57,757 nt of DNA from Nemertoderma westbladi (Eukaryota > Animalia > Xenacoelomorpha): NCBI GenBank assembly GCA_032718475.1, contig JAUCBJ010000894.1, positions 1 to 57,757 on the forward strand. Direction: 5' to 3'. The notes below the pieces were generated by a model that ran no database searches, was not told the origin of the DNA, and saw only the letters and a program-made list of their open reading frames with translations. Position 1 is the stretch's first letter. The number at the start of each line of letters is the position of its first letter. The position numbers were made by a program, and so were the translations under genes. This document shows positions 20,847 to 57,757 of this stretch, one piece after another.

Positions 20847-21249
20847 ATGTTACGTTTCACGTTTCGCTTTTTATTTTAACTAATGGTGTTAACAAATAAG
20901 CCAACGTGTTTTATATAAAATAGTATAATAATGTCTCTGAGTCTGTAGTTGGTTTCTAAAACTCATTTATTCTTTCAATTAAAGTAATCTAATATATTTC
21001 TGCCTCTAGGGCCATTATCAGAGTAGGGACCGGTAAGGCAAGGCCTCGCCGAACTGAACTAAGAAAATCGGTCCATCAACATCTTCATGCTGTATTGATG
21101 TCAAGACAGCATGAGGCTGTCTTAACCCAATCAACTTAAACCTTCTCCGGGAAAAATACACAAATTACAGCTGTTTACAGGCAAAATGCAACTATAACGC
21201 CAGCAATTGGTTATCGTTTATTGTTTTGGTTATAATAACATACCAATAT

Positions 21250-22177: not shown

Positions 22178-24312
22178 TGTTAAACAACCGCGACACCTAT
22201 ACTAACAGCAGAACTGTTGAACAGACAAATACCCGTATACCTCTCTGCCAACCTAATGAGCTCTCGCCTAACCAATAAGACACAAAGACTGCTCTACTGT
22301 TAAGTAAAGGGGATCAGGAGCGTGCTATTACTAAATTGTAAGGGTTGCTAAATACAAAACCGCTACTTACCGTTGGATGGCGCTAATCTGCCGTCCGCTA
22401 ATATATTTTACTAAATTTACACAGCTCCTGCAAAATCGCTTGTTCCTTTCTCTACCGATCGCTCGATAGAGAGCTAACTGTTCGAATCTATGAGCCACGC
22501 GGGAATAACCAAAACAATAAACCCGAGTCGGCTCCCTAAGCTTACTTAAGACGAGTGCGAGGGGCTTTGCACTCAGAGTATATTCTTACGCCTAATTTTA
22601 CTACTGTTGAAGTACGCTAATGCCTACGTCTTTTCTAATCGCGAATACGGAGGGTTCCCTAACGAAATGTGTGAATGCGAGAATATTTAAATAAATCAAA
22701 ATTGGTACAGTACAATGTCTTTCGTGGGTGATACCGCTCTGGGTCTAAACTTGCCTGCAGCTGGCTTTAGGCCAGCAATTCACTAGTGTCTTGCGTACTA
22801 ACTATTGCGATCTAGTTTATTGCCCGCTAATTCAAATAACCGCTCAGCGTGAATAGTTTACGGTACTCTAATTATTACCTTAGCTACTCTCCGCTATGCT
22901 GCGTACTAATTCTTAATTTTACTAATTAATTACAGTCACAAATATGTAACAGCCTAAAATACTGTATTACTTTGACCTAATCAGTAATTATTTACAGTAA
23001 ACTAAGAGATAGAAATCAATCAAAGGGAAAAGAGCGCCTATCTAAGCATTCGTAATCTTAGGCACACTTTAGTAACACATCAATCAGAGTCAGCAATCAC
23101 GGATCACAATAGCACGACTTGCAATTATACAATCTGCAATTATATAATTCGCAACTTACTTACGTACTTACCCACTTACTTACTGTAAGGTATGCAGGCC
23201 CCTCCCGGGTACATCTAGGCTTCCTAACTAACCCAATTCCTGCCCCCTAATACTAAATAGAGACAAAACCTTGGATCATCAGCCCCCTAATTACTGTACC
23301 GGCGAGCGGTCTCCAACCCACAGTCCAAATTGCCCGACCACAACGTTGACCCCCGACAGCGTTGCCCGCCTTTGAATCCTCCGCTCTCCCTTAGTCGCCC
23401 AACCCCCCGATGTGCCCACCGCCTACTGGCACCTTAGCCCTCCATTATGCTAATAGCTACCGTAGCGGCGCATGCAAATCACAAAGTCGGACAGTCTCAG
23501 AAATCCCTTAGGATTATTGCGCAGAAAGGAATCACATAGAACCATTAATCAAAAGGTAGAAATCATAGTTCAGTTGTAATTAGCAGTAATCGAAGGAATT
23601 AATTGAGAAACACAATCAAGAGTAATCGCACTAGCAAATCATTCCAAGAAATTAATCAAATTGCAGAAATACTCTAAAATCCGTCAAAAATGAATAGAGA
23701 CAGCTCAGCAAGTACAAAGGTGATAGCAGATCATGTGAGGGATAACAGTACACAGTAAGGCTCTACCGGCACACCGCCAATTTATAGGTGATCCGGGTGG
23801 GATGATGCAATAGGGTGACTCAATCGCTCTCCTATTGGCTCTCCAGTCCATGCTAGCATTAGACCAACCTGGAAGCAGTTAATCCAATAAGGAGGCCGGA
23901 TTGTAGCCCTATTGCTCAAATTATTACCATATATGGTAATGGTTCACGTCTCTGGCTACTGAATGGCCAGGACAGCGTCCCTATGCTAGCCCTATTGAAG
24001 CTAATATCAGCAAGCACGAAATCCAGGGTCCGACTAAACTTGCTACCCTGGGACTATCTACATATATCCTAATACAAAATTACGTAGGTAGGGCTACATA
24101 CTATACAAAATGGATGGATTCGAATATATGGGTGTTTCGAATTCCCTATCTAAATATCATTGCGTTATTATGCCTTATCTAAAATATTATGCTGCACAAC
24201 GGACTAATATTACGTACAGTATAACGGACTAATATTGCATACTGCATAACGGACTAATATTGCATACTGCATAATGACTAATAATGTGGATACAGCGCCA
24301 TATACCGTAACA
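22178..24312 (-). repeat. 3' LTR (2135 bp)
   Basis: Direct repeat of 36155-38290. Preceded on the minus strand by a short purine-rich run (tggagcgg), a possible PPT. Confidence 0.96.
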
Positions 24313-35000: not shown

Positions 35001-35060
35001 CGGCGGTCCGGCCGCCGTCTCGTAGCTGTCCTCTAGTGCCTCCTTGTCTGAGACACTCAT
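32028..35060 (-). CDS. gag: BEL/Pao gag N-terminal part (coiled coil with ELQLQRERE repeats, DUF1759-like core)
   Basis: FMGNHKHWRTFK...EKFNYLLQML...AMKTLSDIYGN gag core. Overlaps the pol ORF by ATGA. Confidence 0.88.
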   Translation of the reverse strand: MSVSDKEALEDSYETAAGPPTDDSVNITVDDNADYDDAASDADVSEQEDETVTSEEEQQPQVIVLGSPTATVRKDCTAARTEVSDREDSVAEARARSPVSRPVGMVSAVVPTAVRSTRSSRNNPSSPPSVSQVSERELDIAIKKKLRAHAGHITRTTDKVRKMLADSANIGRVELVEIRRGYNSALFKQTEELAVLAKKAVESQSSDVATRIYDRVLAALLEHRELSERFRRVRTENWLLWASQAQATQVSDAELRELVEREEIQDKEERRYQREVTSWLMQNGVVVPGQVLPTTENIQQRTLTPPDDASRDSGDSQVSHARGKVICARSLVSHNSAEERRRRLDEQQAEVLRAQEARKEAERERGRTRKLDAKLRELEEKGKREQAEREQEERELQLQREREECELQLQREQEERELQLQREREERELQLQREREREAKECEQRRRELQLERERKERELERERERRALYEEKACVEEEGAARRAREEEERKLAQLESARLSLESEERTRKANEIAEKGMRMIEECGASVGTELRELFALQKAEQEARTPTIRESTTTRIPIPGPAITSTRIAKPFSTYRTPVGIGASPIAQDPRHRNTAPLYTERENEEFRETPTGRVFGEPNPRVWNTRTERRPSSTENFRVKPEEGSYERQRITQIEPTIQQNPSQEFITRDELSASLAQAISPHIQPITDMLSNLRLKEAAQVRSNSNPSRPELDKVQPSQRVRISEETIPHRPQVRTPVPNIHNPNFENSAEKFIEEAWIRASARKPSRALRTDTESSDEEEDMRRQKSRNYKERKTDAEQVSLNHRERNRLNNPAELNHLLTRNDVTLRDIGKFAARQGLPTQQPQKFMGNHKHWRTFKTYVDEQLTNSTFTPNEKFNYLLQMLHREPRAIADNFVGNERAFELAMKTLSDIYGNKTKMAQSIVEDLGKGGRITTPLELLNLANAISNALDILRTVNLPHHGDHAEVLKSVIRRLNMRYRQKWRKLENKLEGQGKVLTLSIFMT

Positions 35061-36154
35061 AGTCTAAATAATGTTTTGCCTTCCGGCAAAAATATCTCGC
35101 AAAGGTTCGAGATATAATTATAATTTAACCGAAATACGGTCAAATTATTTGTCTATCAGTTGGTCCAAAATGTCAAAATAAATTCGCAATGCAATATTGT
35201 GAATTTAATGGGGTATATAGTTATAGCAAATACTAGCACAATATTTAAACAAAAATATTATTATATAGCTATTATATAGCATTAAATACCGGTATAGCAC
35301 AAAATAACCTTGAATCTAATACAAAATATTCAAAATATACTTGCCACCCGAATATTTCTAATTTTATATATAGCTCTAATCAACATAATTTTAGTTTCAA
35401 ATATTATATGTATCCACTAGCGCGTGGCTACATCTTCGGGTTGCGACTCTCTCTAACTCTCTCTCTAACTTGAGCGATTCAAAAAACCATGGCCGGCTAA
35501 ACCTAAATATCCTAACTAATAAATTGAGTTCAGCTTCGCAGTTAAACAACCGATAATTTTTTTACTGCTTCCACAAACACACTGGTGCCAACAGAACAAC
35601 TAACCTTGTTTGCTGTGAGATTCCACGTCCGCGTCCAAAGATTCAGGCCCTTCGCTGATTGCAAACCGAACCCGCAGACCCACACGAACCCCAAACTCAG
35701 AAGTTCCGTCTTGCCATGTATCTCCAGATGGTATAAAATAACTAAGCGGTTACCTAACATACCGGTACAAAACTCTAGAATTTTACAAAATAATTTTGAC
35801 CGAAACTGAATTCTCGCAAACCTAGCTAAAAATTTCAAAAAACTTACTAATTACAATTTGCCCTAAGGCCTAAGGAACTGCTGTATTCGCAATTAGCAAA
35901 ACGCACTACCGTACATCCACTGTATGCAGTACAGTAAGTAAAACAGTACACCAACCTAACAGCCTAATGATACTGTATGTGGTACGGCAAAACAAATGTC
36001 CCTTCTACCGTAAGCAGTAACAACAATCAGCCTAATGTACTACTGTACTATTGTACGCGACCAGTGAATACAGTAATCTAAACTAACAGCCTAAAAGAAT
36101 ATACTCAATGTTCTACTGTACGCTACACCCTACAGCAAACAAAACATACCTCAC

Positions 36155-38290
36155 TGTTAAACAACCGCGACACCTATACTAACAGCAGAACTGTTGAACA
36201 GACAAATACCCGTATACCTCTCTGCCAACCTAATGAGCTCTCGCCTAACCAATAAGACACAAAGACTGCTCTACTGTTAAGTAAAGGGGATCAGGAGCGT
36301 GCTATTACTAAATTGTAAGGGTTGCTAAATACAAAACCGCTACTTACCGTTGGATGGCGCTAATCTGCCGTCCGCTAATATATTTTACTAAATTTACACA
36401 GCTCCTGCAAAATCGCTTGTTCCTTTCTCTACCGATCGCTCGATAGAGAGCTAACTGTTCGAATCTATGAGCCACGCGGGAATAACCAAAACAATAAACC
36501 CGAGTCGGCTCCCTAAGCTTACTTAAGACGAGTGCGAGGGGCTTTGCACTCAGAGTATATTCTTACGCCTAATTTTACTACTGTTGAAGTACGCTAATGC
36601 CTACGTCTTTTCTAATCGCGAATACGGAGGGTTCCCTAACGAAATGTGTGAATGCGAGAATATTTAAATAAATCAAAATTGGTACAGTACAATGTCTTTC
36701 GTGGGTGATACCGCTCTGGGTCTAAACTTGCCTGCAGCTGGCTTTAGGCCAGCAATTCACTAGTGTCTTGCGTACTAACTATTGCGATCTAGTTTATTGC
36801 CCGCTAATTCAAATAACCGCTCAGCGTGAATAGTTTACGGTACTCTAATTATTACCTTAGCTACTCTCCGCTATGCTGCGTACTAATTCTTAATTTTACT
36901 AATTAATTACAGTCACAAATATGTAACAGCCTAAAATACTGTATTACTTTGACCTAATCAGTAATTATTTACAGTAAACTAAGAGATAGAAATCAATCAA
37001 AGGGAAAAGAGCGCCTATCTAAGCATTCGTAATCTTAGGCACACTTTAGTAACACATCAATCAGAGTCAGCAATCACGGATCACAATAGCACGACTTGCA
37101 ATTATACAATCTGCAATTATATAATTCGCAACTTACTTACGTACTTACCCACTTACTTACTGTAAGGTATGCAGGCCCCTCCCGGGTACATCTAGGCTTC
37201 CTAACTAACCCAATTCCTGCCCCCTAATACTAAATAGAGACAAAACCTTGGATCATCAGCCCCCTAATTACTGTACCGGCGAGCGGTCTCCAACCCACAG
37301 TCCAAATTGCCCGACCACAACGTTGACCCCCGCCAGCGTTGCCCGCCTTTGAATCCTCCGCTCTCCCTTAGTCGCCCAACCCCCCGATGTGCCCACCGCC
37401 TACTGGCACCTTAGCCCTCCATTATGCTAATAGCTACCGTAGCGGCGCATGCAAATCACAAAGTCTGACAGTCTCAGAAATCCCTTAGGATTATTGCGCA
37501 GAAAGGAATCACATAGAACCATTAATCAAAAGGTAGAAATCATAGTTCAGTTGTAATTAGCAGTAATTGAAGGAATTAATTGAGAAACACAATCAAGAGT
37601 AATCGCACTAGCAAATCATTCCAAGAAATTAATCAAATTGCAGAAATACTCTAAAATCCGTCAAAAATGAATAGAGACAGCTCAGCAAGTACAAAGGTGA
37701 TAGCAGATCATGTGAGGGATAACAGTACACAGTAAGGCTCTACCGGCACACCGCCAATTTATAGGTGATCCGGATGGGGTGATGCAATAGGGTGACTCAA
37801 TCGCTCTCCTATTGGCTCTCCAGTCCGTGCTAGCATTAGACCAACCTGGAAGCAGTTAGTCCAATAAGGAGGCCGGATTGTAGCCCAAACCTCAAATTAT
37901 TACCATATATGGTAATGGTTCGTGTCCCTGGCTGCTGAATGGCCAGGACAGCGTCCCTATATGCTAGCCCTATTGATGCTAATATCAGCAAGCACAAAAT
38001 CCAGGGTCCGAATAAACTTGCTACCCTGGGACTATCTACATATATCCTAATACAAAATTACGTAGGTAGGGCTACATACTATACAAAATGGATGGATTCG
38101 AATATATGGGTGTTTCGAATTCCCTATCTAAATATCATTGCGTTATTATGCCTTATCTAAAATATTATGCTGCACAACGGACTAATATTACGTACAGTAT
38201 AACGGACTAATATTGCATACTGCATAACGGACTAATATTGCATACTGCATAATGACTAATAATGTGGATACAGCGCCATATACCGTAACA
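36155..38290 (-). repeat. 5' LTR (2136 bp)
   Basis: Direct repeat of 22178-24312. Short acggactaatatt repeats near the U3 end. Confidence 0.96.
37755..37870 (-). promoter_or_regulatory. Putative LTR promoter (TATA and CCAAT boxes)
   Basis: Minus-strand CTATAAA at 37764-37758, with CCAAT/ATTGG motifs near 37811 and 37861 upstream. Confidence 0.55.
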
Positions 38291-38295
38291 CATTC

Positions 38296-39373
38296 ACTAC
38301 GGTAAGACTGAAAGTATTTTGTTTGGTTCCAAAAGAAAGTTAAAGAAGGTAACTAAGTTTGAAGTCACTAGTAATGGACATAAGATTGAAAATAAAAAGG
38401 AAGTTAAATATTTAGGCGCCACATTGGATAACTGCTTATCAGGAGAAAGTACAGTGAAAAATATTTTCTCGAAAGTTAACAGTAGGCTTAGGTTTCTATA
38501 CAGAAATAAAAATAGTTTAAACACCGACTCCCGCAAGTTACTTTGCTCTTCTTTAATACAGTGTCACATGGACTATGCGTGCTCTTCTTGGTATGAAGGC
38601 TTAACCAAACAGCTTAAATGTAAATTACAAGTAGCTCAGAATAAAGTAGTACGATTTATTAAAGACTACAAACCTAGGCACCACCTAACTCCAGATGACT
38701 TTTCTGAATCTGGACTATTTAACTTAGATAGTAGAGTTAAGCAGCTACGCCTTAACCATGTGCATAAAGTGTATAATGGTAAATGTCCCAATTACCTAAA
38801 ACAAAAATTCAACAGAGTACGCGATACACACTCTTACAGTACCAGAGCTAGTGCTTCAAACCTCTACCTCCCGAATTGTAAATCCTTTGAATCTGATACT
38901 TTCTTTTTTAACGGCATTAAAAATTGGAACGCTCTGCCTAATGAAATTAAAAACATAAATAATCAACATTCTTTTAAATCTGCAGTTAAATCTCATCTCC
39001 GTGTGCAATGTAAAAATAGGTACAATAGTCCTACAGTAAGTTATTAGTTTATTAATTATTTACTATTTATACTGTAATTACGTTTTATAATAAATTGTTC
39101 TGTACATTACATCTTTATCGTTGAGTCGGGCATTGTCACGCTCTCGGTAAAGTTGTACATGTACATAGTGTAATTACGTTTTATATTGGTTTTAGGTTAG
39201 CGTAGTGTAATATTGTATTTGTAACCAAGTAACATAAAGGACCCCCTTGGAAATAAGCTGCAAAGCTTTAGGGGTAATCCTATATGTTATGTTGGACAAT
39301 ACCTTTATACCGGTACATTGTTTGGTGTATTTGTTATTGTTTTTACATAATGTATAAATAAATCTATCTATCT
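38296..39373 (+). mobile_element. CR1/L2-group (Crack-like) LINE, right part and 3' UTR
   Basis: HYGKTESILFGS...KYLGATLD...DYACSSWY...WNALP continues the frame of 21250-22177. 3' end ggacccc...ggaaataag...ggggtaatcc and aataaatctatcta tail. Confidence 0.92.
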
Positions 39374-44337: not shown

Positions 44338-46209
44338 TTAATATCTTCTTTCTGGAATCTCAGGTACTTTCTCATCACATTCCTCGGGTTTTTCTTCCTC
44401 GTTGTTGTTAACAACTACATTAGGAACTGCAACAGGATTGTTTATAACTTCTACGTCGACATTCCCATTAACATTCTTCGGTATATCATAGACAGCATCA
44501 GAGTCAGTTTCTTTTTCAAGTCGTACTTTGTTCATCTCAGTATACAAAACATCATCTCCAGCAGAAACAGAATCAACTGTCTGTAACTCGTCAGTGTAAA
44601 CTTGATGACGCAGTTTCGGTGTTGGTTTATTTCCATGGAAACCTTTAGTAAAACCAACTGCTTCGTAACCACCACCACTATCATAATCTGTAATATCAGC
44701 GCCATCTATCGATTCGTACTGGTCCACCACATTGCTGTCAGAATTAACTATTGGTGATGTTGGAGGGTTTATACAAGTAGATTGATTAGTACTGACGTAG
44801 CCTGGATTTGTGTTACCTTGAGGTTGTCTAACATTTTGACGAGTATTATCACTAGAAGTGTTGTTACCAGTAACTCCATCTACAATATCTAATGTCGAGT
44901 AATAATATCCATCAGCCACATCATTAAATCTACCAATATCGCCCCCATCGCTATACACATTGTCTACAACATCTACAACGCTCTCCCCCAAAGGATTCGG
45001 TCTCTCTTCCTTAGAGCGACGCTTCTTACAAACAAAATACAAGACCAGCGTTGTTAGGAGCAACGCAGTCACTGAACCACCAACACTAGTCGCTATGACT
45101 ACGACAGATACACCTTCACTTGCATTGTTTGTATTTACAACCACCACGCTGACATTCGGACTAGTTACATTCTGGTAACCAGGGATACAATAAACTTCGT
45201 ACCAATACACTCCACTGTCTCCCGTAGCAACTGTATAGCTAATAATTGTATCAACATTAATTCGTTCCATTTCGTTGTCTGAAGTTTCTCTGTACCAACT
45301 GACGTTGTTATCTGGCCACCCTTCTATAAAATCAGCTTTTAGAACAAGTAAATCACCTTCAACTAACTGAATGTCACTGGCAGAGACATCGTTGTCAGTG
45401 GTGATCGTTAGGTTGGTTGCTAAGTAACTAATTTCCATGGATACCGTACAAGTTTCAACGCCGTTAGTAACATAATTATTTGCCTGGCAAGTAAATTGGT
45501 TATTTAAACTTAGAAAGAAGTCGGCGTCAGAAGGAATCTGGTAATAATTAATTTGTGTATTTGTGACATCTTTATTTATACTGTTAACTGGGTTACAGTC
45601 TTTATCAACCCATTGGAATATTCCGTTGTTATGGTAACGAGTTTCCCTAGGTGAAGGCATCCAATCATTAGCCTTGCATTCTATATAAGGTGGTAATTGG
45701 TTATCGTCGCTGCTAATATATTTATTTGAATTTCTATCGAATATTAGTTGACAGTTTCTGTTCTGTGTCTCTGCCTGTCCGTTACATCCGCATTCTGGAA
45801 CAGAATACCGACACTGAGGAAGTGTAATCTCCTGCCCGGGTGACAAATATTTCCAATACCAATAACAACTATATTCAAAAGTCCCATTGTATTCATAATC
45901 ATATATAAGTCTATTAACAGTAAACGTAGCAGTGTGAGCACTTCTGTCAAGGTAAACACTTCCTCTATTGGAGTTGGTTACTTGTGACCCGTAAACACGT
46001 AATATGGTTTTCCAATCTGAACCAACTACAATATACAACCCAATATCAATATTTGAACGCCACCTTATTCGACTATCAGTACAAACCAACTGTAGTTTGT
46101 CATCTTTAACAAGACAATCTCGTCCAACTGGGAGAATCTTTTGCAAACTATTAACTGACCCAGACAAACTCAGAACAACCGAACAATAAACCCAATTAAT
46201 AATATTCAT
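44338..46209 (-). CDS. Intronless type-I membrane protein, 623 aa, with Ig-like ectodomain and tyrosine-rich cytoplasmic tail
   Basis: Signal-peptide-like N-terminus. Ig-like patterns (LQLVC..W..ATFTVNRL..YSC; FTCQANN; EGDLLVL..VSWYR..DSGVYW). TM VVVIATSVGGSVTALLLTTLVLYFVC followed by KKRR. Minus-strand AATAAA just after the stop. Confidence 0.8.
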   Translation of the reverse strand: MNIINWVYCSVVLSLSGSVNSLQKILPVGRDCLVKDDKLQLVCTDSRIRWRSNIDIGLYIVVGSDWKTILRVYGSQVTNSNRGSVYLDRSAHTATFTVNRLIYDYEYNGTFEYSCYWYWKYLSPGQEITLPQCRYSVPECGCNGQAETQNRNCQLIFDRNSNKYISSDDNQLPPYIECKANDWMPSPRETRYHNNGIFQWVDKDCNPVNSINKDVTNTQINYYQIPSDADFFLSLNNQFTCQANNYVTNGVETCTVSMEISYLATNLTITTDNDVSASDIQLVEGDLLVLKADFIEGWPDNNVSWYRETSDNEMERINVDTIISYTVATGDSGVYWYEVYCIPGYQNVTSPNVSVVVVNTNNASEGVSVVVIATSVGGSVTALLLTTLVLYFVCKKRRSKEERPNPLGESVVDVVDNVYSDGGDIGRFNDVADGYYYSTLDIVDGVTGNNTSSDNTRQNVRQPQGNTNPGYVSTNQSTCINPPTSPIVNSDSNVVDQYESIDGADITDYDSGGGYEAVGFTKGFHGNKPTPKLRHQVYTDELQTVDSVSAGDDVLYTEMNKVRLEKETDSDAVYDIPKNVNGNVDVEVINNPVAVPNVVVNNNEEEKPEECDEKVPEIPERRY

Positions 46210-47540
46210 ATTGGAGAAATAAAATTACTAAAACTGAGTTGTTTTAAAATCAATAAAATTGTGAATAATATTGTAAAATGTAATTCAATAAATAAAGTTT
46301 AAATTATTATAACTTATATAAACAAACTATTGGATATATAGAGCTAATCGAATCGCATTATACGGAAGGCTTTCTTGACTCTTTACTGTACAGTACAGGG
46401 TAGATATGGATATATATATATACCAGGATGCGGTGTGGAGATAAGGTTAACGACAAACCCTAATGGTGCCAATACAATCATTATGGTCCATATATAAAAC
46501 AATGCATCACCCTACAGAAACAACTCTCAGATTCGCCTGTTGGTCCGTTTGACTGTCGGTCTGTCCGTCAATATAAAGCATACTATCTGTCTAAACAATT
46601 ATCTACATGGGTTTTCTTGGTCCGTGACTTCATTTCTGATGTCATTATTCAAACTTGGCCTCGTCGTTTCTGTCTGTATGGCTGTATATAACCGCCGAAA
46701 TATAACCGACAGCCCAACGACCAAACAAACCATTAGGAAATCATAAAATCGTATAACTGACACTCGAAAATAATTCTGCGACAATGAAAACCCCTATAGA
46801 TAAACATTGAAAACTAGATTGTACGCCCTTTTCTTATATTTGACGGACAGTTGTCGGATAGTCAAATAGACCGACAGAAAGACATACAGACTAACTATAG
46901 TTTTCATAAAAGTGAAAACTTACATCAGAAATGAAATCATCGACCAGAAAAAACCCCCTAGCAAAATTCTTAGCATGGTTTTGTGCTTTCTTGTAGCAAT
47001 TCTCTCGGAATGGAATTGTTTCATTATTAAAAGACTACTCCTCCGCCATTTTTCCACCAATTTGTAAGTTTTTGGTATAAAATGAAATCTAGTAGTGTGC
47101 GCAATAATAACATTTTAAGCAATTTAGTTTTGCAATTGTTTTCTACTGTTATAAAAAATTTCACGAAAATAAATTTATTTTTAAAAGTAGCGGCATTTTT
47201 CTTGAAAAGTTTTTTTTTCACGTAATCAATCATGCTAATTCTAAAAAAACAGGTTACAACTTTTGAAAATAAAGCATAACAAAGGAGACGCATTTTAAGA
47301 CAAAAATATATATTTTGGCTCTGGCCGCTAAGGCCATTAAGGCCGCTTTTTGGAGCTGTATGCATTTCAAAATGTTGACTTCCAAGCCAACACCACCCCC
47401 CCCCCCCCCCCCCCTTTGAGATTTTAGAAGGACAGAAAGCGGCCAAAATAATTTCTATTTGATAAGAATTTTCTAGAATTTCAACTGGGTAGAAATTAAT
47501 TTCACCAGCCATCACAGATCCGCTTAGAGAGAGATCTCCT

Positions 47541-48093
47541 TTACTACAACTACGATCGGCATGCTGCATTGCAGCTGCATTATATATATATTAAAAATAT
47601 ATTAAGAATGCTGTGCCGGCTTGTCGACAAAATTGCGCCGCCACAACTCCCTATCACCCATGACATTTACTAGATCATCCGCATCTTCAAGGCCAGTGTC
47701 ATTTAGGATGCGTCTAGTCATGATGACTCTGGTCTGGTCTGGTAATGGAAGTCATGGGCTGTCCAAAGCGGAAGCGGTTCCGTTCAAGTGTCAAGCTCGG
47801 GGAGACTAATGAAACACCTCCAATGTTATATAGTGTCTGGTTGGAGATGTGTGCATTGTACTTGACACAATGAACCCGGCGTAGCATTCTTGTGAATGTG
47901 CCATCCAGAGATTTGGTGTCCTCGGCAGTTAGAGCGCAGCATGGACTCCCATAGAGGAGTACTGGAACTACTGCTGCTCTAAATAACCGGACCTTAAGTT
48001 TCCGATTAATTCTCGGTGACTTCTAAATCCTGGAAAGCCTATTCAAGGCTGTCCATGCCTTTCCCTTACGTATTCGAAGGTCCTCACCAGTAG
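47541..48093 (-). mobile_element. RTE LINE 3' fragment (same family as 1875-3007), internally deleted
   Basis: Reverse complement matches 2435-2992. Confidence 0.9.
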
Positions 48094-48159
48094 TATACAA
48101 TACTATGACACTGGATAATGGTCACCCGTAGTCCATCATTACCATCCATTTCTGGTACT

Positions 48160-48322
48160 GCAGCCAATCAGAAGCAACCATTTCAACCTTTTGCGGTGGT
48201 CGTTATTATTTCAACCAATCAGATGTCAGCATTTCATCCGTAACCATGGTAACTTCTCAAGTTCCCGCTTATTCCGCTAGAGGCGTTATTAGTCACCCAA
48301 CTCTAGTACTGCATCCAATCAT
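48160..48322 (+). promoter_or_regulatory. Putative promoter: three CCAATC boxes and an RFX X-box-like palindrome
   Basis: ccaatc at about 48164, 48215 and 48315. gtaaccatggtaac at 48240-48253. Confidence 0.45.
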
Positions 48323-48326
48323 AAGC

Positions 48327-48575
48327 CTTTATTTTACAGGTGTTCGGGTGTCTACACTTAGCAGCAGGTAACTTCTACTATTTTTCAAATCGCTATTTTT
48401 CACCAACCAGTATTTTCATATTTACCAACCTTTATTTTACAGGTGCTACGAGTGTCTACAGGTAACGTCTACTATTTTTCAAATCGCTATTTTTCAGCAA
48501 CCAGTATTTTCATATTTACCAACCTTTATTTTACAGACGCTAGAGGTGTCTACAGGTAACTTCTACTATTTTTCA
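48327..48575 (+). repeat. About 2.5 tandem copies of a 94-bp unit containing an acceptor, a micro-exon and a donor
   Basis: cctttattttacag|19-28 nt ending cag|gtaac... occurs three times. Confidence 0.8.
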
Positions 48576-49127
48576 CCAGTAACTAAATTTAATTTTGCAA
48601 TTTTTCAGATAACAAAATATTCAACAGGGTTCGAACTCGGGACCATTATAACTCCCCCACAACTCACCAATCACTCTTCCATCCAACCTCGAGAGAAAAA
48701 GGCGATAAATATCTGAGTTATACCATAGTCATTGAATTCTTCATCTTCATCACCGGTAGCAGATGTTTATAAATAGCTTCTAGTTCCTTAACATAATTAC
48801 TATAGCGTAGAATACATTAATTCGACTATTAATAATAATCGATTTCTTTTATCGATGTAACTGGTCGATCAACTAAGTTGAATATAAGTTAGAATGACAG
48901 GGCTAGCATTGATCACGTTGCATCTGTTACACGTTACTGCTATTTCACTCTCTAACTCGCGCTAATGTAATAAATTTAGCTGTACACGTTGCATCTGTTA
49001 CACGAAGCTACTATATTCCTCACTGTAAGTCACTCTGTTTTATTAAAGCAACCATATAAACCGAAGTTTTACAATCTAATAATCATTTATTTAGTTTTTA
49101 TTTTTCAAAATAGTTTTCATTCTAATT

Positions 49128-50174
49128 ATGGATTTATTTAAAAAAACTTCAAGCAATACTTGGAAATTTACATTTAATAAATATACCTGTAGTATTGTTT
49201 ATGGCAAGTACTTTATATTACTCTCATGCGATAGCAATGTAACAACGTGCTTCTCTTACCAGGATACACTCTACCTTCTAGACGTCTTAGAAATATTATT
49301 CAACCGACAAAAGGAATCACCAGTTTCAAGAGGTAATATTTATCCTAATATAGAATTTACAAGAGGAAAGTTAAATATTTCCACCTGTGTTATTACTGAA
49401 AACGTATATATTCAGAAGCAAGGCAAATGTCAAATTCTAAACAAATCACTCATTAATTTATTACTTCAGAGTAAGACAGAAATATTAGAATTGTTATCAC
49501 CACCACTCGAAATAATAAATCAGTGTTATGTTGTTAATTTAACCAACCCATCTTTTGTTGGTTTTGTAAGCAAATATAAAGGAGCGACTTATATGGGACT
49601 ATGGGAGATTTCAGCTAGATATTCTGATGCTATTGGTCTTAGGTATTATAATGGGTTTAACTTAACAGCATCGGAAGTAAATTCATTGTGGTATGAATGG
49701 AATTATGAAATTAGTAACAAAGGTGTCTTTTCAGAGCTAGATACGGACGATAAAGTAGCTTTATCTGACCGACTTAAAGTAAAAATAAATGTACAAGAAA
49801 AAAAAGTAATTATTACTGACAAGGAAAGCAAATATTTACAGTTACATTACGATAAAGACATACCTCATATAGAGTTTCTCTATGATATGATGTTAAAGGT
49901 TTCATCAACTGATATAGCAGACGGTTTCGTGATTCTATATCCACCAACTTGGAAGTTTAAGGATAATAAGTCATTTCCAGAAGTAGTTTCATCCACATTT
50001 AATCCAAAGACATACATCGAAGAGACCTCGAGTGATAGAAAGCGCAGATCTACATCTCAATCATCTTCCATTCCCAACAATGATTCTATACCTACAAAGA
50101 AAATAAAAGTTACAAAAGCAAGTGAAGAGGTAGCAGATTACAATAAGGAACATATAAAAACAGTATCAGATTGA
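49128..50174 (+). CDS. Intronless 348-aa protein, possibly tandem PC4/Whirly-like ssDNA-binding folds
   Basis: Long AT-rich ORF with TATA-like catataaa at about 49053. Segment VGFVSKYKGATYMGLWE...NGFNLTASEVNSL resembles the PC4 pattern. Basic NLS-like motifs RKRR and KKIK. Confidence 0.6.
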   Translation: MDLFKKTSSNTWKFTFNKYTCSIVYGKYFILLSCDSNVTTCFSYQDTLYLLDVLEILFNRQKESPVSRGNIYPNIEFTRGKLNISTCVITENVYIQKQGKCQILNKSLINLLLQSKTEILELLSPPLEIINQCYVVNLTNPSFVGFVSKYKGATYMGLWEISARYSDAIGLRYYNGFNLTASEVNSLWYEWNYEISNKGVFSELDTDDKVALSDRLKVKINVQEKKVIITDKESKYLQLHYDKDIPHIEFLYDMMLKVSSTDIADGFVILYPPTWKFKDNKSFPEVVSSTFNPKTYIEETSSDRKRRSTSQSSSIPNNDSIPTKKIKVTKASEEVADYNKEHIKTVSD

Positions 50175-51333
50175 TTTATTATTAACTAGAGACTTTTCTT
50201 TTTCAGTTTCACACTGACTTGTAAAGGTAACTTTTTATCACAAAGCGTGATTATTATAAAGTATTTGCATGTAAAGGTGACTTTATTGAGTAAATATTGG
50301 TGATAGTTTAATGTGAGCACGGGATTAGGTATAAAACATTCGCATGTAAATGCATGAGTTTACACCACCATAATAAAACATTTGCATGTAAAACCTACTT
50401 TATCAATGAAAATTAAAAACGCATTAGACACATCTTGGTTTAGACTTGATTTTATTATAAAGAATTCAGTTGTAAAAGCAACTTTATTTATGATATTAGT
50501 TTCCAATGTAACTGTTATTTATGATTGGTTGGTATAAGTAGAAACTTGAAATATATATATATATATATAAAGAGCTCAACTGATTCATTCGAGCTCATTC
50601 TGAAAATATTAAATTAATTAAAGTTTAGATATTATATTTTATTTACGTTGAGTAGCTTATGAATTTTTTTGATTATATCAGTCTATCAGTTTCTATCAGA
50701 TTCTATCAGTACCGAACCTAATACTGCTGCTAATACTGCTGTACAACTACAGAACTGTCTGCCTGTCTGCTGGTGGTACGAGCCTGTATCCGTTTGCGGT
50801 CCAGGCACCGGTTGTAGCAGAGTTTTAGCGAACTTTTTTATTTCATTTTTATTGATTATTCTTGGTACTGTACACTGCAGCGCCGGCACACTGGTGCTAC
50901 ACGGTTGCTGCAGTATTATTAACGGTATACTGTGAGTACCGTACCTGGGACCTGACTAACTGACTAAGGAATATATATCTACTGTAACGGGTGTAAACGG
51001 AGGATCTGAACCGAAGCTACCGTTCAGTTGGTAACTAACTCTGGTGGGTTGAGGACAGAGTCGCCTCCTCCCAGATACTTGGAAAAGAAGAAACCAGAGT
51101 TAGTGAGTCCCAACCTGCTTACCGCAGCAGTACCGGAGTGGATACTGTCATACCTATCTGCCTATACCGAGTTGACGTTCAATCAGTTATACTAATTTCA
51201 TACACACTACACCATTGGGGTGGCCCAAAAAAAAAGGAATATTACTGAATTGCTGTGAAATTAAACGGCTATTGCTATTGCAACCTGACTGCCTGAACTC
51301 CTATGGTTCAGTATCTCTGTTTAGCTAGGAGAA

Positions 51334-54300
51334 ATGACTACCATCCTGCAGGAGAACAGCATGGAAGACTTACGACGGGCGAATACGCAACGTTTAAAAA
51401 CTGTTATGCAAAAGAACGGCCTGTCTGCATCGGGCACAAGAGCTAATTGCTTACTGCGGGCAGCAAAGTCACGCATATTCCCAGACGTTCCGGTAACCAG
51501 CCTTACTCCTAATGCAGTAACTCCGCTGGAAACGACCATGGCAACGACTCGTATACTGCCGTATACTGGCTCTCCGCCATCAACTTCCGCCACTACTAGT
51601 ACCAATCCTCTACCCGAATCCATCCCAGTAACCACCACGGATACCCCTATTTCGCTGGTATCGCCCACGACAACTACCGGTACCGTTTTTTTGCCGGAAC
51701 CGGTATCTGTCCTCCCAGTTATTGCTGGTGCTCTGCCAGAACTTACCCCAGTAAATAGTGGCACTGTACTATCAACTACCCGTATCGCTACACGACTGGT
51801 ATCGACCACACCAATGACTGGCTTTCCACCGGAATCTATCCCAGAACACTCTCTACAAGTAACCACCGGCGCCACTCCTCCACCGGAATCTGTCCCAGCC
51901 ACATCCAGTATGTCTTTTGGAATCGAAGATGATATATGTGCTGAGAGATGTGGAACTACGGATATAAGAAATTGGCTTGTTAATAACAATGATAACAGCG
52001 CTACACCTCTTCCTCTCATCAGTAGAGGAATTAAGAAGAAGCACTCCAATAAACCTCACAATCCCGATCAGCCCATTGTGGAAGACCTAGAGTCCGATGG
52101 ATCATGGAAATTAAGACCAATTATTCCCAAATGTGAAGCCAAACAACCAGATGAAGAGAATAAGTTCTTTCCTGATATAGACGTAAGGTTTCATGAGACT
52201 GAAGTCAGGGCTGCAGCTCTATACACTGGTGGATCCAAAGGTTTGGTAATGCTGAAGGCTTCAGATGTAGACTGGGAATACCTGAATCAAGGTAAATATT
52301 TATCTACAGTTATAGTGGACTCATTTTTATCATTGCTGAGTAATAACTATGAACATGTGTGCGCTGTGGATTCTGCTCTCTGTTCAATGAAACTTCAGCA
52401 GAATAATTATGACGAAGCGAGTGCTATTAAATATATCACACACAGCTGCAACATCACTGATACGTCACTGCTTCTATTCCCACAATGCACTGAAAACCAC
52501 TTTTCATTACATATTGCTAACCGAAACGATTTTACAGTGTTCACCCTATGTAGCATATCTGCTGTGATGGAACCCAACATTATAACAAACCGACTATGTG
52601 ATTTATTAAATACCATAGAATTTTACACAAACAACCAAAGGAGTAAGAGCTGGCATCCAGTTTCGTATAGCAATTCATTTCAACGCCAGACTAACAGCTT
52701 TGATTGTGGTACATACTTATGTGTCTACGCATTGTTACTTGCAACAAATAGCACATTAGAGGTTAACTACGATAGCAATTCTCTGCGTGTTTGGTTAAAA
52801 CGTTGCTTAAGTGACATAAAGATATACGATCCATTGATACTGGAACCTCTTCTCTACAATGAGTGGAGGAAAGTTCCCCCAGTGCCAGTACCTAGCATGT
52901 TCGAATCAACATCAGCCAGCTCTTCCTCGAAACTCAAGGCAACATGTGAAACAAAGGATAGAGTTGACGAAATTCTCCACCTACGTGAACCATTAACTCT
53001 TATTATGCGTCGTCCAAGGAAGACTGTGCTTGCTACACTAGAGCAGTGTGATTATGAAGACTTAATCCAAGCACGGCAATCACTTTTTGAAGAGGTAAAA
53101 TCACTTATGAGTAATGTTGATAAAAATACTCTAGTGCTGCAGTCAAGATCATCAAAGACCCAGCTAGCCAATGATCTCTATGAATTAGTACGCACCAAAA
53201 CAGAATCAACCCTCACTGCAGCATTAAAAAAACGTCTCAAAAGGAATCCAGTAGAAATCCTCGATGACTCGAATAATATACAAGAAATACTATCTGTCCT
53301 GGCTGTGGTGCAAACTCGTCTTAGTGTCATGGAACTTCAAATATCTAAGCTTGAGGGTGAAAATATAGGATTGAAGGACCAATTGGCCCATGAGCGGCAG
53401 CAGAGAATTATAATAGACAATAAACTGCAATACGTGAATCGGGATCCCAATCATATGTCTAATGCATTGCATAATTGTAATGGTATTGAGAATAAACACG
53501 TGGAAACCATGACACTTACAAATATGAAAACCTATAATAAGAGTAAAGGTGACCAAGCATACCAAAACGCAAGTACTACAATGACATCTAATGAGAGATC
53601 CAAATTTGAAGGGTATATGGATGACGTTGATAACAGTTCATCCAATCTAATGTGTACAACAGTGAATAGTAAAACCGCCAATACAAACTGTACGTCCATA
53701 GGCAATGATTACAATGGTTCAGAGGAGCCCTGGCATCTTGCATCTATGAATCCATATACAATATTAGCAGCCTATCATGAGAACTGCATGGTGAAAGTGA
53801 TGGATGAAAAGGATGGTGAAAGTGATAAAATTGTAAACAGTAGAAAATCTGATAGAGAGCGAACTCATTCAGTGTATCAAACAAATGAAATCAAGCACGA
53901 GAACGAAGGAGACCAACAACCCCACTCTGTAAGTAACCAATATAAGTATGTGAATGTACGAGGCCAGCGTGTCCTCTCAGTTAACAACTATAATGATGTG
54001 AATGGATCTGGGAACCAAAATGTACATAGCAAAGAAAAGAAACCAGCACCATGGCATACAAATAAATTGAAGAATTACATTGACACACAAAAAGTCAATA
54101 TCAACAATCCAAGTGTAAGTGAGAATCGAGAAATTCAAAATCGGTCGCAATCGAACTACAGATCGAGAATGACAACATATAATGAAGTTCTCTATCTGGC
54201 CACTAACAACCCAAACTATGACGAGGATCGTATATTGGGATACTGTTCAATTGGTGGTGTCCAGATAGAACGAATTACAACCCGCAATTACGGGGGCCGC

Positions 54301-54444
54301 AGGAACTTTCGACTAGTTGTAAACAACAGGGATGTGAACAAACTGGTAAGTCCGAACTCTAGTTTCTGGCCAGCTGATGCGAAATGTGTAATGTGGCGAG
54401 ACCGCCAATCTGTCTACAATCACACTCCCTTTCAATCCATCTAA
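51334..54444 (+). CDS. LINE ORF1: SAP-like motif, T/P-rich linker, Ulp1/SENP (C48) protease-like domain, coiled coil, C-terminal RRM-like domain
   Basis: LKTVMQKNGLSASGTRANCLLR; YLNQGKYLSTVIVDSFL...LLFPQCTENHFSL...QRQTNSFDCGTYLC; heptads LSVMELQISKLEGENIGLKDQL; NFRLVV...FWPADAKCVMW. Confidence 0.82.
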   Translation: MTTILQENSMEDLRRANTQRLKTVMQKNGLSASGTRANCLLRAAKSRIFPDVPVTSLTPNAVTPLETTMATTRILPYTGSPPSTSATTSTNPLPESIPVTTTDTPISLVSPTTTTGTVFLPEPVSVLPVIAGALPELTPVNSGTVLSTTRIATRLVSTTPMTGFPPESIPEHSLQVTTGATPPPESVPATSSMSFGIEDDICAERCGTTDIRNWLVNNNDNSATPLPLISRGIKKKHSNKPHNPDQPIVEDLESDGSWKLRPIIPKCEAKQPDEENKFFPDIDVRFHETEVRAAALYTGGSKGLVMLKASDVDWEYLNQGKYLSTVIVDSFLSLLSNNYEHVCAVDSALCSMKLQQNNYDEASAIKYITHSCNITDTSLLLFPQCTENHFSLHIANRNDFTVFTLCSISAVMEPNIITNRLCDLLNTIEFYTNNQRSKSWHPVSYSNSFQRQTNSFDCGTYLCVYALLLATNSTLEVNYDSNSLRVWLKRCLSDIKIYDPLILEPLLYNEWRKVPPVPVPSMFESTSASSSSKLKATCETKDRVDEILHLREPLTLIMRRPRKTVLATLEQCDYEDLIQARQSLFEEVKSLMSNVDKNTLVLQSRSSKTQLANDLYELVRTKTESTLTAALKKRLKRNPVEILDDSNNIQEILSVLAVVQTRLSVMELQISKLEGENIGLKDQLAHERQQRIIIDNKLQYVNRDPNHMSNALHNCNGIENKHVETMTLTNMKTYNKSKGDQAYQNASTTMTSNERSKFEGYMDDVDNSSSNLMCTTVNSKTANTNCTSIGNDYNGSEEPWHLASMNPYTILAAYHENCMVKVMDEKDGESDKIVNSRKSDRERTHSVYQTNEIKHENEGDQQPHSVSNQYKYVNVRGQRVLSVNNYNDVNGSGNQNVHSKEKKPAPWHTNKLKNYIDTQKVNINNPSVSENREIQNRSQSNYRSRMTTYNEVLYLATNNPNYDEDRILGYCSIGGVQIERITTRNYGGRRNFRLVVNNRDVNKLVSPNSSFWPADAKCVMWRDRQSVYNHTPFQSI

Positions 54445-54511
54445 GGATCCACCACAGAGGGGGGATTTCAATAATGGTAGCAGCAAAAACTCTTGTCAAG
54501 GAACTGTAAGA

Positions 54512-57500
54512 ATGGTAACATTCAATTGCCATGATGCCATAACTAGTATTGACTATATTAAATCTTTATGTGCTTCTAATGATGTAGTAGCACTACAGGA
54601 GCACTGGTTGGATACTGAGGAAATAAAGGAGCTCCTGGTAAACCAGTTAGGCTCAGATTACCATTGTTTATCATTGGTTTCAAAGAAAATGGATAATCCA
54701 AACAAACGCCGTGGCGCTGGTGGTGTTTCACTAATTGCAAAAAAGTCTAAATTAAACCTGGTCCAAAAGATAGAATCCAATGACGACATCATTGGGGGAA
54801 TTTTCAAACCAGCTAATGCCTCCTGCCGTCTTCTCATATTGTGCGGTTATGTACCTGATGCTGGTAAACCACTAGAAATGTACATTGATCTTATGAATAG
54901 AGTAGAATCAATTATCAAAACAAACCCAGACTGCATTCCCTATTTGTTAATGGACACAAACTCAGATATTGGCATTGCTCATGGTCCAAGGTCATGTCGG
55001 TCTTCACCTACCTTGAGGGGTAAAGAGTTAATAAAATTTTGCTCTAACAACAATTTGGCTGCAGTTGACACATATAACAACTTTTCTGGCCCCACATATA
55101 CATTTCACAGCGCTGCGAGCAACACAAACTCATATATAGATCATATATTATCTTCACACCATGGTAAAAGTCTTGTTGTTGATGGCAGTGTGATGATGGA
55201 AACCTTTGAGAACAACCTCTCTGATCACCTACCAGTGTTTTGTCGTATTGATATAAGTCGTTTTATTAAAGCTGAAGGCTACAAAAACTCTATGAAAACA
55301 TTTAGCTCAGTGAAATTCAACTGGGAGAAGGCCAGTGTGGCTAACTTAAGGCAGTATAACGAAAAGGTCACAACTGAGTTGAATATGCTTAGAATCCCTG
55401 CAAAGCCAAATGAGAAATGGACTAAATGTATGTTAAATGATTATACAAATGACTTGACAGCTATACTTCTTAAGTGTGCGAAACAATGCATACCAATCTC
55501 TAAGCGGAAACGTAAGAGTAAAAATATACTTATCCGCAATAAACAACTACGAGACTATTCAAAAACATCAAAGAAACTATATAAAATGTGGATTGGTAAA
55601 GGTAGTCCTCATAATGATCCTCTGTGTGAAGAAATTAAGTCCTCAAAGCGAGCTACTCGACGGCTAAAGCGTAAATTATACAAAGAAATGTTAAATAAAC
55701 GACTTAGTCAAAGACTGAACACGGGGTCTGCTAAGACATTTTGGTCAAACTTTTCTAAAACGTCTCACTCTGCTCCTCCAGACATGGAAGATAAAATAAG
55801 TGAAGCAATTCAAAACGATCTTCAGCATAAGGGTGAACAGAATTTTGATGACATTGAAAGATATCTACGTTCTAGAATGGAATCTACAAGCATGCCTACA
55901 ATTGAAGCAAACACGATATATGAGGCTATCTTATCACTATCAAAGCGAAAGGCGCCCGACAGTAGGAGTCTAGTTGTTGAACACTTAATATGTGCAGATC
56001 CATCTGTAATATGCTATCATATCGGTATTGTCCTAAATACGAGTATTCAAGTTGGATGTGTGCCAGACGTGTTTGGAGAAACCATCCTCTCAATGGTTTA
56101 CAAAGGTCATGGTAGAAGTTTATATGAGACACCGTCATACAGGCCGATTGCCAGCATCAACATATATGCAAAGGTTTTAGAGGCGATCTGCTTATCGGAA
56201 TTTCTAGTAGAGATTGACAAACCTCATAGCATGTCAATGGCCTATCAAAAAAGAATTGGTTGTGATGAGGCCATATCTCTTGCATTGGAGGTGATTAATT
56301 ATTTTCAATCCAGGGGATCCACTATCTACGCCTGTCAAACAGATATCAGTTCCGCTTTCAACATGGTGGATTATGTTGTTCTATTCGACCGGCTATCCAA
56401 AATATTGAATCCATTCATCTGCTGTATATTACTTTATTATTATCGCAACACTAAATACTTCATCAAACATGGTGAAAGAATAAACAGAAGCTTTTTTATT
56501 GGGTTTAACGGAGTTAAGCAGGGCTCGCTGCTTTCGCCCTCTCTGTTCAACTTCTATATTCATGATGTTGTTGATAATATGGAGCGACTTGGCCTTGGCT
56601 GCTTTATAAAGGATACCTGGGTTGGAATTATCAATTATGCAGATGATTTGCTCCTTCTAGCATTGTCACGTACTGAAATTGAAAAAATGTTAACTGCCTT
56701 AGAAACACAGCTGACCCTTATTGGTTTGCACTTATCTGTAAGTAAAACGTCATGGACCACTATGGGTGACCAAACTAATGGAAGCAACCAGCAGATAATG
56801 TTTAATGGTTCCTCGATCAATCTGTCAGAATATATTAAATTTATTGGTTACAAATTATACAGCAAACCTGATCATATAATCGTTGATCTTAGACGGCGAA
56901 TCGGTATCTGTTCTTCTGCGTTCCATCAGAAGGGATGGACAGTCAGACAATACCCCCTTGATGTTGTCAGTAAACTGTGGAACACAATAGCTGTCCCGTT
57001 CCTTTGCTACGGCATGGAGATCCAAGTTGGTAGTCTTTCCTTGTCGGACATAAAGCGGTTAGATTCTCAATACAGAAAATCTCTACGTGGTCTTCTTTAT
57101 GCGGGAAATTATATCAGTACTCAGACACTGGAAATTGTGTTTGGTAATGCTTGTATCTCAACTACTGCCTTCAAGAGATTGGCCAATCTGATAGAGCGCA
57201 TTAAGTGTTGCCCTAAATACGACCTTCAACATATGCTACGGTTTTTATGCTCGATTGGTCAATGGGATGGTTACCTAAATAATAATCTGCCTAGTATTGC
57301 AGCTTCTTATAGTAAGGGCAGAAAGTTATATGCGCTACCATCATTATTTAACATATTTAATTTTGATTACTCTTACAAGGAACTGACACAGAGAATGTCA
57401 CCAGGTGCACCAAACATAAGTGATTGCTGTAGCGCAGATTTTCTCTCTATGTGCTACTCCAATAATGGACTCAGTTTCAAAAGTAAACGTGAAATATTTT

Positions 57501-57529
57501 CCTCTTACTATAATAGAACTGATGAATAA
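54512..57529 (+). CDS. LINE ORF2: AP endonuclease and reverse transcriptase
   Basis: APE motifs TFNC, LQEHWL, GGV, MDTN, YIDHI, SDHLP. RT motifs YRPI, DISSAFNMV, GVKQGSLLSPSLF, YADD. Confidence 0.95.
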   Translation: MVTFNCHDAITSIDYIKSLCASNDVVALQEHWLDTEEIKELLVNQLGSDYHCLSLVSKKMDNPNKRRGAGGVSLIAKKSKLNLVQKIESNDDIIGGIFKPANASCRLLILCGYVPDAGKPLEMYIDLMNRVESIIKTNPDCIPYLLMDTNSDIGIAHGPRSCRSSPTLRGKELIKFCSNNNLAAVDTYNNFSGPTYTFHSAASNTNSYIDHILSSHHGKSLVVDGSVMMETFENNLSDHLPVFCRIDISRFIKAEGYKNSMKTFSSVKFNWEKASVANLRQYNEKVTTELNMLRIPAKPNEKWTKCMLNDYTNDLTAILLKCAKQCIPISKRKRKSKNILIRNKQLRDYSKTSKKLYKMWIGKGSPHNDPLCEEIKSSKRATRRLKRKLYKEMLNKRLSQRLNTGSAKTFWSNFSKTSHSAPPDMEDKISEAIQNDLQHKGEQNFDDIERYLRSRMESTSMPTIEANTIYEAILSLSKRKAPDSRSLVVEHLICADPSVICYHIGIVLNTSIQVGCVPDVFGETILSMVYKGHGRSLYETPSYRPIASINIYAKVLEAICLSEFLVEIDKPHSMSMAYQKRIGCDEAISLALEVINYFQSRGSTIYACQTDISSAFNMVDYVVLFDRLSKILNPFICCILLYYYRNTKYFIKHGERINRSFFIGFNGVKQGSLLSPSLFNFYIHDVVDNMERLGLGCFIKDTWVGIINYADDLLLLALSRTEIEKMLTALETQLTLIGLHLSVSKTSWTTMGDQTNGSNQQIMFNGSSINLSEYIKFIGYKLYSKPDHIIVDLRRRIGICSSAFHQKGWTVRQYPLDVVSKLWNTIAVPFLCYGMEIQVGSLSLSDIKRLDSQYRKSLRGLLYAGNYISTQTLEIVFGNACISTTAFKRLANLIERIKCCPKYDLQHMLRFLCSIGQWDGYLNNNLPSIAASYSKGRKLYALPSLFNIFNFDYSYKELTQRMSPGAPNISDCCSADFLSMCYSNNGLSFKSKREIFSSYYNRTDE

Positions 57530-57757
57530 ATCACTTAGATATTAAGACTTTTAGAGTAGCTGGCTTTTTAGTAAACCGGTTTAGTCACGTTTTAATTCAA
57601 TATTACGCAATGTGGTATTCTTTTAATCTTCTGGTCGATCCATAAGACCTTTTTTAAAATGATTTTTAATGTGTTAATTGTTAACTGTCAATTATAATAA
57701 TAATTAAATGCCAGCTCGACTGGTGAGGCGCGAATATGCGCGAATAAACTAACTAAA

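Follow-up and report, generated by a model that had tools for sequence, protein, structure and literature searches.

An APE-type LINE of Nemertoderma westbladi with a C48/Ulp1-fold domain in its first open reading frame

The window analysed here is a stretch of 57,757 nucleotides (nt) of Nemertoderma westbladi DNA (Xenacoelomorpha; assembly GCA_032718475.1, contig JAUCBJ010000894.1, positions 1 to 57,757 of the forward strand). At its right end lies a long interspersed nuclear element (LINE) of the type that encodes an apurinic/apyrimidinic endonuclease (APE) together with a reverse transcriptase (RT). The first of its two open reading frames (ORF1) contains a domain of the C48/Ulp1 fold, preceded by a SAP-like motif, and this N-terminal half belongs to the mobile element and is shared by several copies. 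We describe the element, its copies and relatives, and consider what the domain might do.

Organization of the element

The features of the element are as follows (aa, amino acids; UTR, untranslated region; E, E-value).

50703-51333, plus strand: 5′ leader (UTR), 631 nt; 5′ edge placed at about 50680-50703
51334-54444, plus strand: ORF1, 1036 aa from ATG, uninterrupted
51361-51474, plus strand: SAP-like motif, aa 10-47; PF02037 score under the Pfam cutoff
51496-51933, plus strand: Pro/Thr-rich linker seen in the translation, with degenerate internal repeats (families D1-D3)
52240-52851, plus strand: C48/Ulp1-fold domain, aa 303-506; His389 at 52498, Cys406 at 52549, Gln452 at 52687, Cys458 at 52705
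52951-53238, plus strand: helical domain; weak alignment to the conserved N-terminal domain of related ORF1s
53266-53433, plus strand: predicted coiled coil; weak Pfam matches (E 0.02-0.09), heptads by eye
54181-54399, plus strand: C-terminal 'WP' (FWP) domain common to related ORF1s, from profile and alignment
54392-57529, plus strand: ORF2, 1045 aa stop to stop, uninterrupted
about 54512-55230, plus strand: APE endonuclease in ORF2 (Pfam Exo_endo_phos, E 2.7e-9)
about 56130-56855, plus strand: RT in ORF2 (RVT_1, E 3e-20), YADD at 56636
57530-57757, plus strand: 3′ UTR; AATAAA at 57743, then what is likely the first part of a short-repeat tail, which the end of the window truncates

The 5′ edge is placed from a near-identical contig, which aligns from 50703 and is preceded by 53 different letters, and from a high-depth repeat upstream that stops near 50678. 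At the other end the window stops 9 nt past AATAAA. A first-pass annotation of this DNA had reported an uninterrupted 1036-aa ORF1 upstream of an intact APE-RT ORF2. That description stands, since both frames are open, Pfam identifies APE and RT and the catalytic motifs of both are present. With ORF1 intact and ORF2 so equipped this is probably an autonomous APE-type LINE, intact and likely recently mobile.

A C48/Ulp1 fold in ORF1

The domain is a real C48/Ulp1 fold. On the whole of ORF1 the Pfam profile PF02902 aligns with aa 319-478 and scores 20.7 bits (E 3.9e-4), which equals its curated cutoff of 20.7, and on the excised domain the score is 25.5 bits (E 1.4e-5). The best match by sequence in the Protein Data Bank (PDB) is a Ulp1-like SUMO protease (PDB code 6dg4, E 6e-5), followed by SENP7, Ulp1, SENP1 and SENP2, all with weak E-values. 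Searched exhaustively, 1.84 billion representatives yielded 14 matches, every one covering the C48 region, at 22-31% identity; the named proteins among them are SENP-like or of the Ulp family.

A model of the domain based on an alignment has a predicted local distance difference test score (pLDDT) of 75, and a single-sequence model made without an alignment reaches only 36. The alignment was itself made from C48 matches and the fold comparison is therefore partly circular. With that proviso, the model is closest to SENP5 (Foldseek E 1.3e-9; Z 22.0, root-mean-square deviation (RMSD) 2.4, 180 residues aligned). SENP5, SENP3 and SENP1 together give Z values of 20-22 and RMSD of 2.4-3.2 over approximately 180 aligned residues, compared to Z values of 16-17 for NEDP1 and 12-13 for viral processing enzymes. 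The model has the fold of the CE clan. The C48-like domain of the first-pass annotation, which was to be given up if no such fold could be matched, is thus upheld, by Pfam at or above cutoff and by Foldseek with a SENP-like, though partly circular, result. A tree of the C48 region leaves the domain unplaced and names no donor. A scan of viral contigs returned two weak loci, and Atlas matches of 0.76 and 0.83 are leads only.

Copies and the unit of mobility

Copies of the element were read from contigs belonging to public DNA runs on this species, which come from three studies. Two runs, X1 and X3, represent one sample, and X1 is possibly the source of the window. A single X1 contig covers 52041-55679 with four differences and no gaps, and a single contig of run X2, from another study, covers 52460-55415 with two differences. 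Both bridge the C48 catalytic residues to ORF2.

There is also a sister copy, approximately 2.5% diverged (29 changes over 1063 nt; 28 over 1201 nt), which includes the leader, SAP motif, linker and the C-terminal half of the C48 domain. It is decayed, with a stop at aa 232 and a 386-nt deletion (52067-52452) at a 4-nt microhomology that is present in X2 and X3. As this decayed copy carries the N-terminal extension, the extension predates the copy in the window. The earlier concern that the domain might occur in this copy only can be set aside given the contigs of two studies and the sister copy, and we conclude that the half of ORF1 comprising SAP-like motif, linker and C48 domain belongs to the mobile element. 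Further copies and a sister family are indicated by leaders that follow different upstream sequence, by an X2 loose end at 51782 and by contigs whose linker is 14-17% diverged.

Contig depth, which is not copy number, climbs toward the 3′ end in three of four runs, the pattern expected from 5′ truncation; coverage of the element in run X4 is minimal. The deleted form predominates in X3 and no such joint is present in X1, although the two are one sample. The G+C fraction at third codon positions is similar in the C48 region (0.37) and ORF2 (0.36).

A module of approximately 120 nt in the leader (51019-51139) contains a perfect 12-nt inverted repeat (51034-51104) and recurs at other loci with 85-90% identity and both flanks different. 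It may be a promoter module that several families have in common, or else a small mobile element.

Relationship to other LINEs

The nearest database relatives of ORF2 share only 22-27% identity with it. A scan over four of the collection's 64 parts supplied 79 metagenome loci with related ORF2s. In a tree of 74 RT rows, without named Proto2 references, the element RT lies among 69 rows of Proto2-like relatives and stands apart from the two other RTs of the window. The branch is long (2.85, with at most 30% identity), and branches of this length are placed with little certainty. Judged by eye, the RT motifs of the relatives, and less closely those of the element, fit the Proto2 and not the RTEX rows given in a supplement of PMC10294476. 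The names of the ORF2 matches carry no clade label and a gastropod supplement provided no clade-labelled matches. On these comparisons the element is probably a divergent Proto2. Membership of RTEX was considered and rejected, as the RT motifs fit Proto2 better by eye, and so was membership of NeSL/Utopia, since the element has two ORFs and an APE domain as opposed to a single ORF with a restriction-like endonuclease (RLE).

Where complete, the ORF1s of the relatives are approximately 300-610 aa long. They have in common a helical domain and a coiled coil, and most also have a C-terminal domain with a WP motif at its end. About 12 of the 79 loci have a complete-looking ORF1 5′ end (14 are listed, two with the motif misplaced). 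The C48 profile, run over 2074 frames of the 79 loci, found none (best E 0.43). The contrast drawn earlier between this ORF1 and those of other APE-type LINEs is therefore borne out among its relatives.

Some relatives have additions of their own. Four (L014, L020, L040 and L057) carry a conserved Cys-rich N-terminal module in the same slot and one (L013) has a 230-aa N-terminal extension, neither with a Pfam name. The ORF1s of L014, L024 and L040 end in a different C-terminal domain.

From aa 540 onward ORF1 follows the order seen in the relatives, of helical domain, coiled coil and WP domain. Because this part matches the relatives, and they are without C48, the first 540 residues can be regarded as an extension on a clade-typical ORF1. 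The individual matches are faint. A profile of the helical domain scores 0.5 bits on ORF1, not above shuffles; in alignment A3 the domain is collinear with the relatives and keeps an invariant Asp. The FWP domain has no Pfam match. A profile of 25 related ORF1 C-termini gives it 5.7 bits at the expected place, with three higher domain scores among 1000 shuffles. The label 'RRM-like' for this domain is tentative. A homolog search with aa 270-1036 of ORF1 found none among 7636 candidates, and a search with the related-ORF1 alignment against proteins of 917-2615 aa none among 7992, the latter weak evidence.

At the N-terminus SAP is the top Pfam match for both slices of ORF1 tried, with a score below the cutoff. 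There is no SAP match by Pfam on the whole of ORF1 and none in the PDB. The SAP motif of the first-pass annotation is present at the N-terminus, as a SAP-like motif only. Two basic patches occur in ORF1, at aa 234 and aa 632.

Translation of ORF1 and the junction with ORF2

The leader is depleted in ATG. In its 631 nt there is a single ATG where 10.3 are expected, none of 2000 shuffles is as low, and the depletion (z -3.8) ranks second among the 64 trinucleotides. Controls behave otherwise, with four against 6.5 expected on the reverse strand of the leader and 12 against 12.9 in the 631 nt upstream. The N-terminal extension, with 29 against 32.5, shows no such depletion, in keeping with a coding role, and its first 539 codons contain no stops, compared to a mean of 30 and a minimum of 16 in shuffles. 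Since the leader has been stripped of ATGs we infer that initiation occurs at the ATG at 51334 and that the whole fusion is made.

The sole leader ATG opens a 47-codon, out-of-frame upstream ORF (51303-51446), which overlaps the start of ORF1 and could damp its translation.

ORF2, in the +1 frame, shares its first 53 nt with the end of ORF1. Its only Met is placed four residues before the APE catalytic Asn, and 40 open codons precede that Met. Among 31 correctly anchored relatives (33 rows, two mis-anchored) there are 30 with a Met at least seven residues upstream of this Asn. The junction (54392-54514) contains CCC TTT CAA, which we take to resemble known +1 slip sites. Directly past the ORF1 stop is a modest hairpin of -7.6 kcal/mol, a value without a shuffle control.

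The active site and possible functions

The order His389, Gln452, Cys458, representing catalytic His, oxyanion Gln and catalytic Cys, is kept. Indeed all seven columns that are invariant in the 14 C48 relatives (Pro383, His389, Gln452, Asn454, Asp457, Cys458 and Gly459) are conserved, with the caveat that these relatives were themselves retrieved via the same invariant residues. Conservation of this kind, at no more than 31% identity and on a long branch, suggests long selection on the active site. The catalytic His (52498-52500) and Cys (52705-52707) are exactly where they had first been reported.

We tentatively favour, at less than even confidence, the reading that the domain is an atypical but active isopeptidase for SUMO or another ubiquitin-like protein (Ubl), directed against host silencing and brought to chromatin by the SAP-like motif. 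It is favoured because the His, Gln and Cys, together with the motif around the Cys, survive at 69% divergence or more, and the fold is nearest to the SENPs. It is favoured also because SUMO is needed for silencing by SetDB1 guided by PIWI-interacting RNA (piRNA), a requirement described in Drosophila (10.1101/533091), and because captures of Ulp1 and OTU domains recur in unrelated elements.

Several observations weigh against this reading. The position of the triad Asp, which lies some 17 residues past the His and is Asp in 12 of the 14 relatives, is occupied by Cys406 (52549-52551). The other two relatives, the tunicate SENP-like proteins P0016 and P0020, carry Asn and Ser, so that host C48 genes also vary here. 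The residue following the catalytic His is Phe390, and all 14 relatives have Trp. Upstream, Thr325 is found where 12 of 13 aligned relatives carry Asp, a position that we presume to be within a SUMO-contacting motif. These changes are not assembly errors, since the X2 contig is identical to the window over 52460-53750 and neither of two X1 differences falls in the C48 domain. The SAP-like motif, even as a chosen 38-aa slice, scores 17.8 bits with PF02037 (E 0.0027) against a cutoff of 23.9. Of the 95 rows of differences in the sister copy 40 were listed, and 36 changes among those listed comprise 12 synonymous and 24 non-synonymous, where a synonymous fraction of approximately 0.25-0.30 is expected. 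No signal of purifying selection is measurable, because the changes in the one diverged copy, which is dead, resemble neutral ones. Finally, ORF1 proteins are usually cytoplasmic RNA chaperones and nuclear action is an assumption here.

The first-pass annotation was correct on the His, Gln and Cys of the active site and missed the replacement of Asp by Cys406, Trp by Phe390 and Asp by Thr325. Its DNA-tethered deSUMOylase survives in part: the C48 domain is real, in frame and mobile, but the SAP motif is below cutoff and the triad Asp, the Trp and the upstream Asp are lost. What remains is a variant of the C48 fold and not a canonical SENP, which may or may not be active.

With respect to catalysis, His-Asp-Cys is named as the triad of these enzymes and the Trp after the His is linked to a preference for di-glycine (PMC6759571). 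Papain-like enzymes vary in their third catalytic residue, and in Tae1 the His is stabilized by a cysteine (PMC10318531). A literature search retrieved nothing on what happens to SENP1 when its triad Asp is lost, and a Cys-His-Cys triad was not encountered among the 14 C48 relatives.

On the favoured reading, translation from the ATG at 51334 would yield the whole fusion of SAP-like motif, linker, C48 domain and ORF1 core. The C-terminal half, with helical domain, coiled coil and WP domain, would package RNA as in the relatives, whilst the SAP-like motif and the basic patches at aa 234 and 632 might carry the protease to chromatin or DNA in the nucleus. The part played by Cys406 could be to orient His389, in the manner of the cysteine in the papain-fold amidase Tae1. 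The resulting His-Cys protease would strip nuclear proteins of the host of SUMO or a related tag and so blunt silencing, its substrates perhaps being SUMOylated silencing or repair factors at the loci or insertion sites of the element. The more specific proposal, of a LINE lineage whose ORF1 protein would be a SAP-anchored, chromatin-tethered deSUMOylase with a Cys-His-Cys triad, removing the SUMO marks for piRNA/SETDB1 silencing, is in our view doubtful.

The three altered positions (Cys406, Phe390 and Thr325) would also suit a weakened or dead pseudo-protease, retained as a SUMO/Ubl-binding or structural module, or a slowly decaying passenger kept open solely by the need to translate ORF1 through it. 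None of the 79 related loci needs such a domain, and the ORF1 core downstream demands a stop-free frame in any case. We nevertheless judge this explanation unlikely. The domain is at least 69% diverged from its nearest relative and still keeps the His, the oxyanion Gln and the complete N-x-x-D-C-G motif, active papain-fold enzymes vary in the third triad residue, and in a passenger random loss of catalytic residues or an in-frame deletion would be expected.

Might the protease act on the element's own products? It would then cut the ORF1 protein, or an ORF1-ORF2 fusion made by +1 frameshifting, and not host SUMO. The changes at positions that we take to be SUMO-contacting fit a new specificity, and there is a Gly-Gly site, LYTGG/S (aa 296-301), at the N-terminal edge of the C48 domain. 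The sole Met of ORF2 unusually close to the APE Asn, the 40 open codons before it and the 53-nt overlap are also compatible with a fusion. CE-clan enzymes of adenovirus, poxvirus and African swine fever virus process polyproteins (PMC10318531). However, three Gly-Gly pairs against 1.1 expected is not significant, and relatives without a protease also show short ORF1/ORF2 overlaps. The fold is nearer to SENPs (Z 20-22) than to the viral processing enzymes (Z 12-13), and chromatin substrates make better sense of the SAP-like motif. Self-processing seems rather improbable.

A last possibility is that the SAP-C48 half arose by chance, as an in-frame insertion or chimera found in this copy alone, or through misassembly. 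This would agree with the failure to find a relative of this layout in homolog searches or the 79 loci, but is very improbable and largely refuted by contigs of two studies that join C48 to ORF2, by the older copy, approximately 2.5% diverged, that shares the N-terminal half, and by the ATG-poor leader, which precedes the SAP-like motif and not the ORF1 core.

Neighbourhood in the window

Directly upstream of the LINE, positions 47764-50678 are occupied by one or more repeats with a contig depth of thousands to over one million, compared to approximately 100 in the LINE. The LINE appears to have inserted at the right end of this sequence. The repeat carries an intronless ORF of 348 aa (49128-50174) without a Pfam match, in which we presume, by eye, a PC4-like motif.

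On the minus strand, 26788-35063 is a BEL/Pao long terminal repeat retrotransposon with two long frames, of 1011 and 1751 aa, containing DUF1759, zinc knuckle, Peptidase_A17, integrase and DUF5641 domains. Also on the minus strand, 44338-46224 is a single frame of 628 codons that likely encodes a membrane protein with Ig domains and, in its cytoplasmic part, Tyr-rich motifs; the Pfam matches are weak. Pieces of other LINEs are found at 12614-13342, 21115-22278 and 38289-39047, and two RT pieces group apart from the RT of the C48-bearing element.

Comparison with known systems

The first-pass annotation gave Ulp1 domains for DNA transposons and for RLE-type NeSL elements, and both are published. 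Ulp1-like domains are described in nematode NeSL and in Utopia-1_TSP, which are single-protein RLE elements (PMC4640811), and Ulp1 or OTU domains are found repeatedly among Ginger1, Mutator and Helitron elements (PMC2836005). In contrast to NeSL and Utopia, the protease here is within a separate ORF1, preceded by a SAP-like motif and ahead of an APE-RT ORF2. Ginger1, Mutator and Zisupton share with it an element-borne C48 domain proposed to help transposition, and are possible donors of the SAP-C48 module. They differ in being DDE DNA transposons with the domain at the C-terminus of the transposase. Zisupton combines SAP with a SUMO protease. To our knowledge, a role for the Ulp1 and OTU domains of DNA transposons and RLE retroelements has been proposed but not shown.

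The Proto2-like relatives resemble the element in an APE-RT ORF2 without an RNase H match and in an ORF1 with helical domain, coiled coil and WP domain. They differ in the shorter ORF1 (approximately 300-610 aa), in no case with C48 (0 of 79 loci). Accessory domains have likewise been shuffled into the ORF1s of other APE-type LINEs, with esterase or PHD domains in CR1, L2 and RTEX (PMC3905857, PMC4120745), those of RTEX being known for esterases (PMC3905857). The main text of a survey of 448 Jockey-group ORF1s, which does not extend to Proto2, has no occurrence of 'protease', 'peptidase', 'SAP' or 'Ulp1' (PMC4120745). A literature search, with Repbase, Dfam and most supplements of PMC10294476 (curated family libraries included) outside its range, found no APE-type LINE ORF1 with Ulp1, and the sections consulted of PMC11203168, PMC5408684, PMC10175614 and PMC5753468 add nothing further on this.

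Cellular SENP/Ulp1 enzymes (MEROPS C48) have the same fold, order of His, Gln and Cys, and QxNxxDCG motif. Here the triad Asp is Cys, the Trp is Phe and the domain is internal whereas theirs is C-terminal; identity to solved SENPs is below 20% by structure.

A new domain arrangement is well supported, in which a known kind of element-borne Ulp1 domain, here with an unusual triad, has come to lie in ORF1 of an APE-type LINE. C48-bearing LINEs of the APE type are at present known from one family in one species. An independent capture of Ulp1 into the ORF1 of an intact element of this type represents a compact test case. In standard LINE retrotransposition assays a single Cys mutant could separate anti-silencing, insertion aid and self-processing, and the change of Asp to Cys in the triad offers a natural experiment in CE-clan catalysis.

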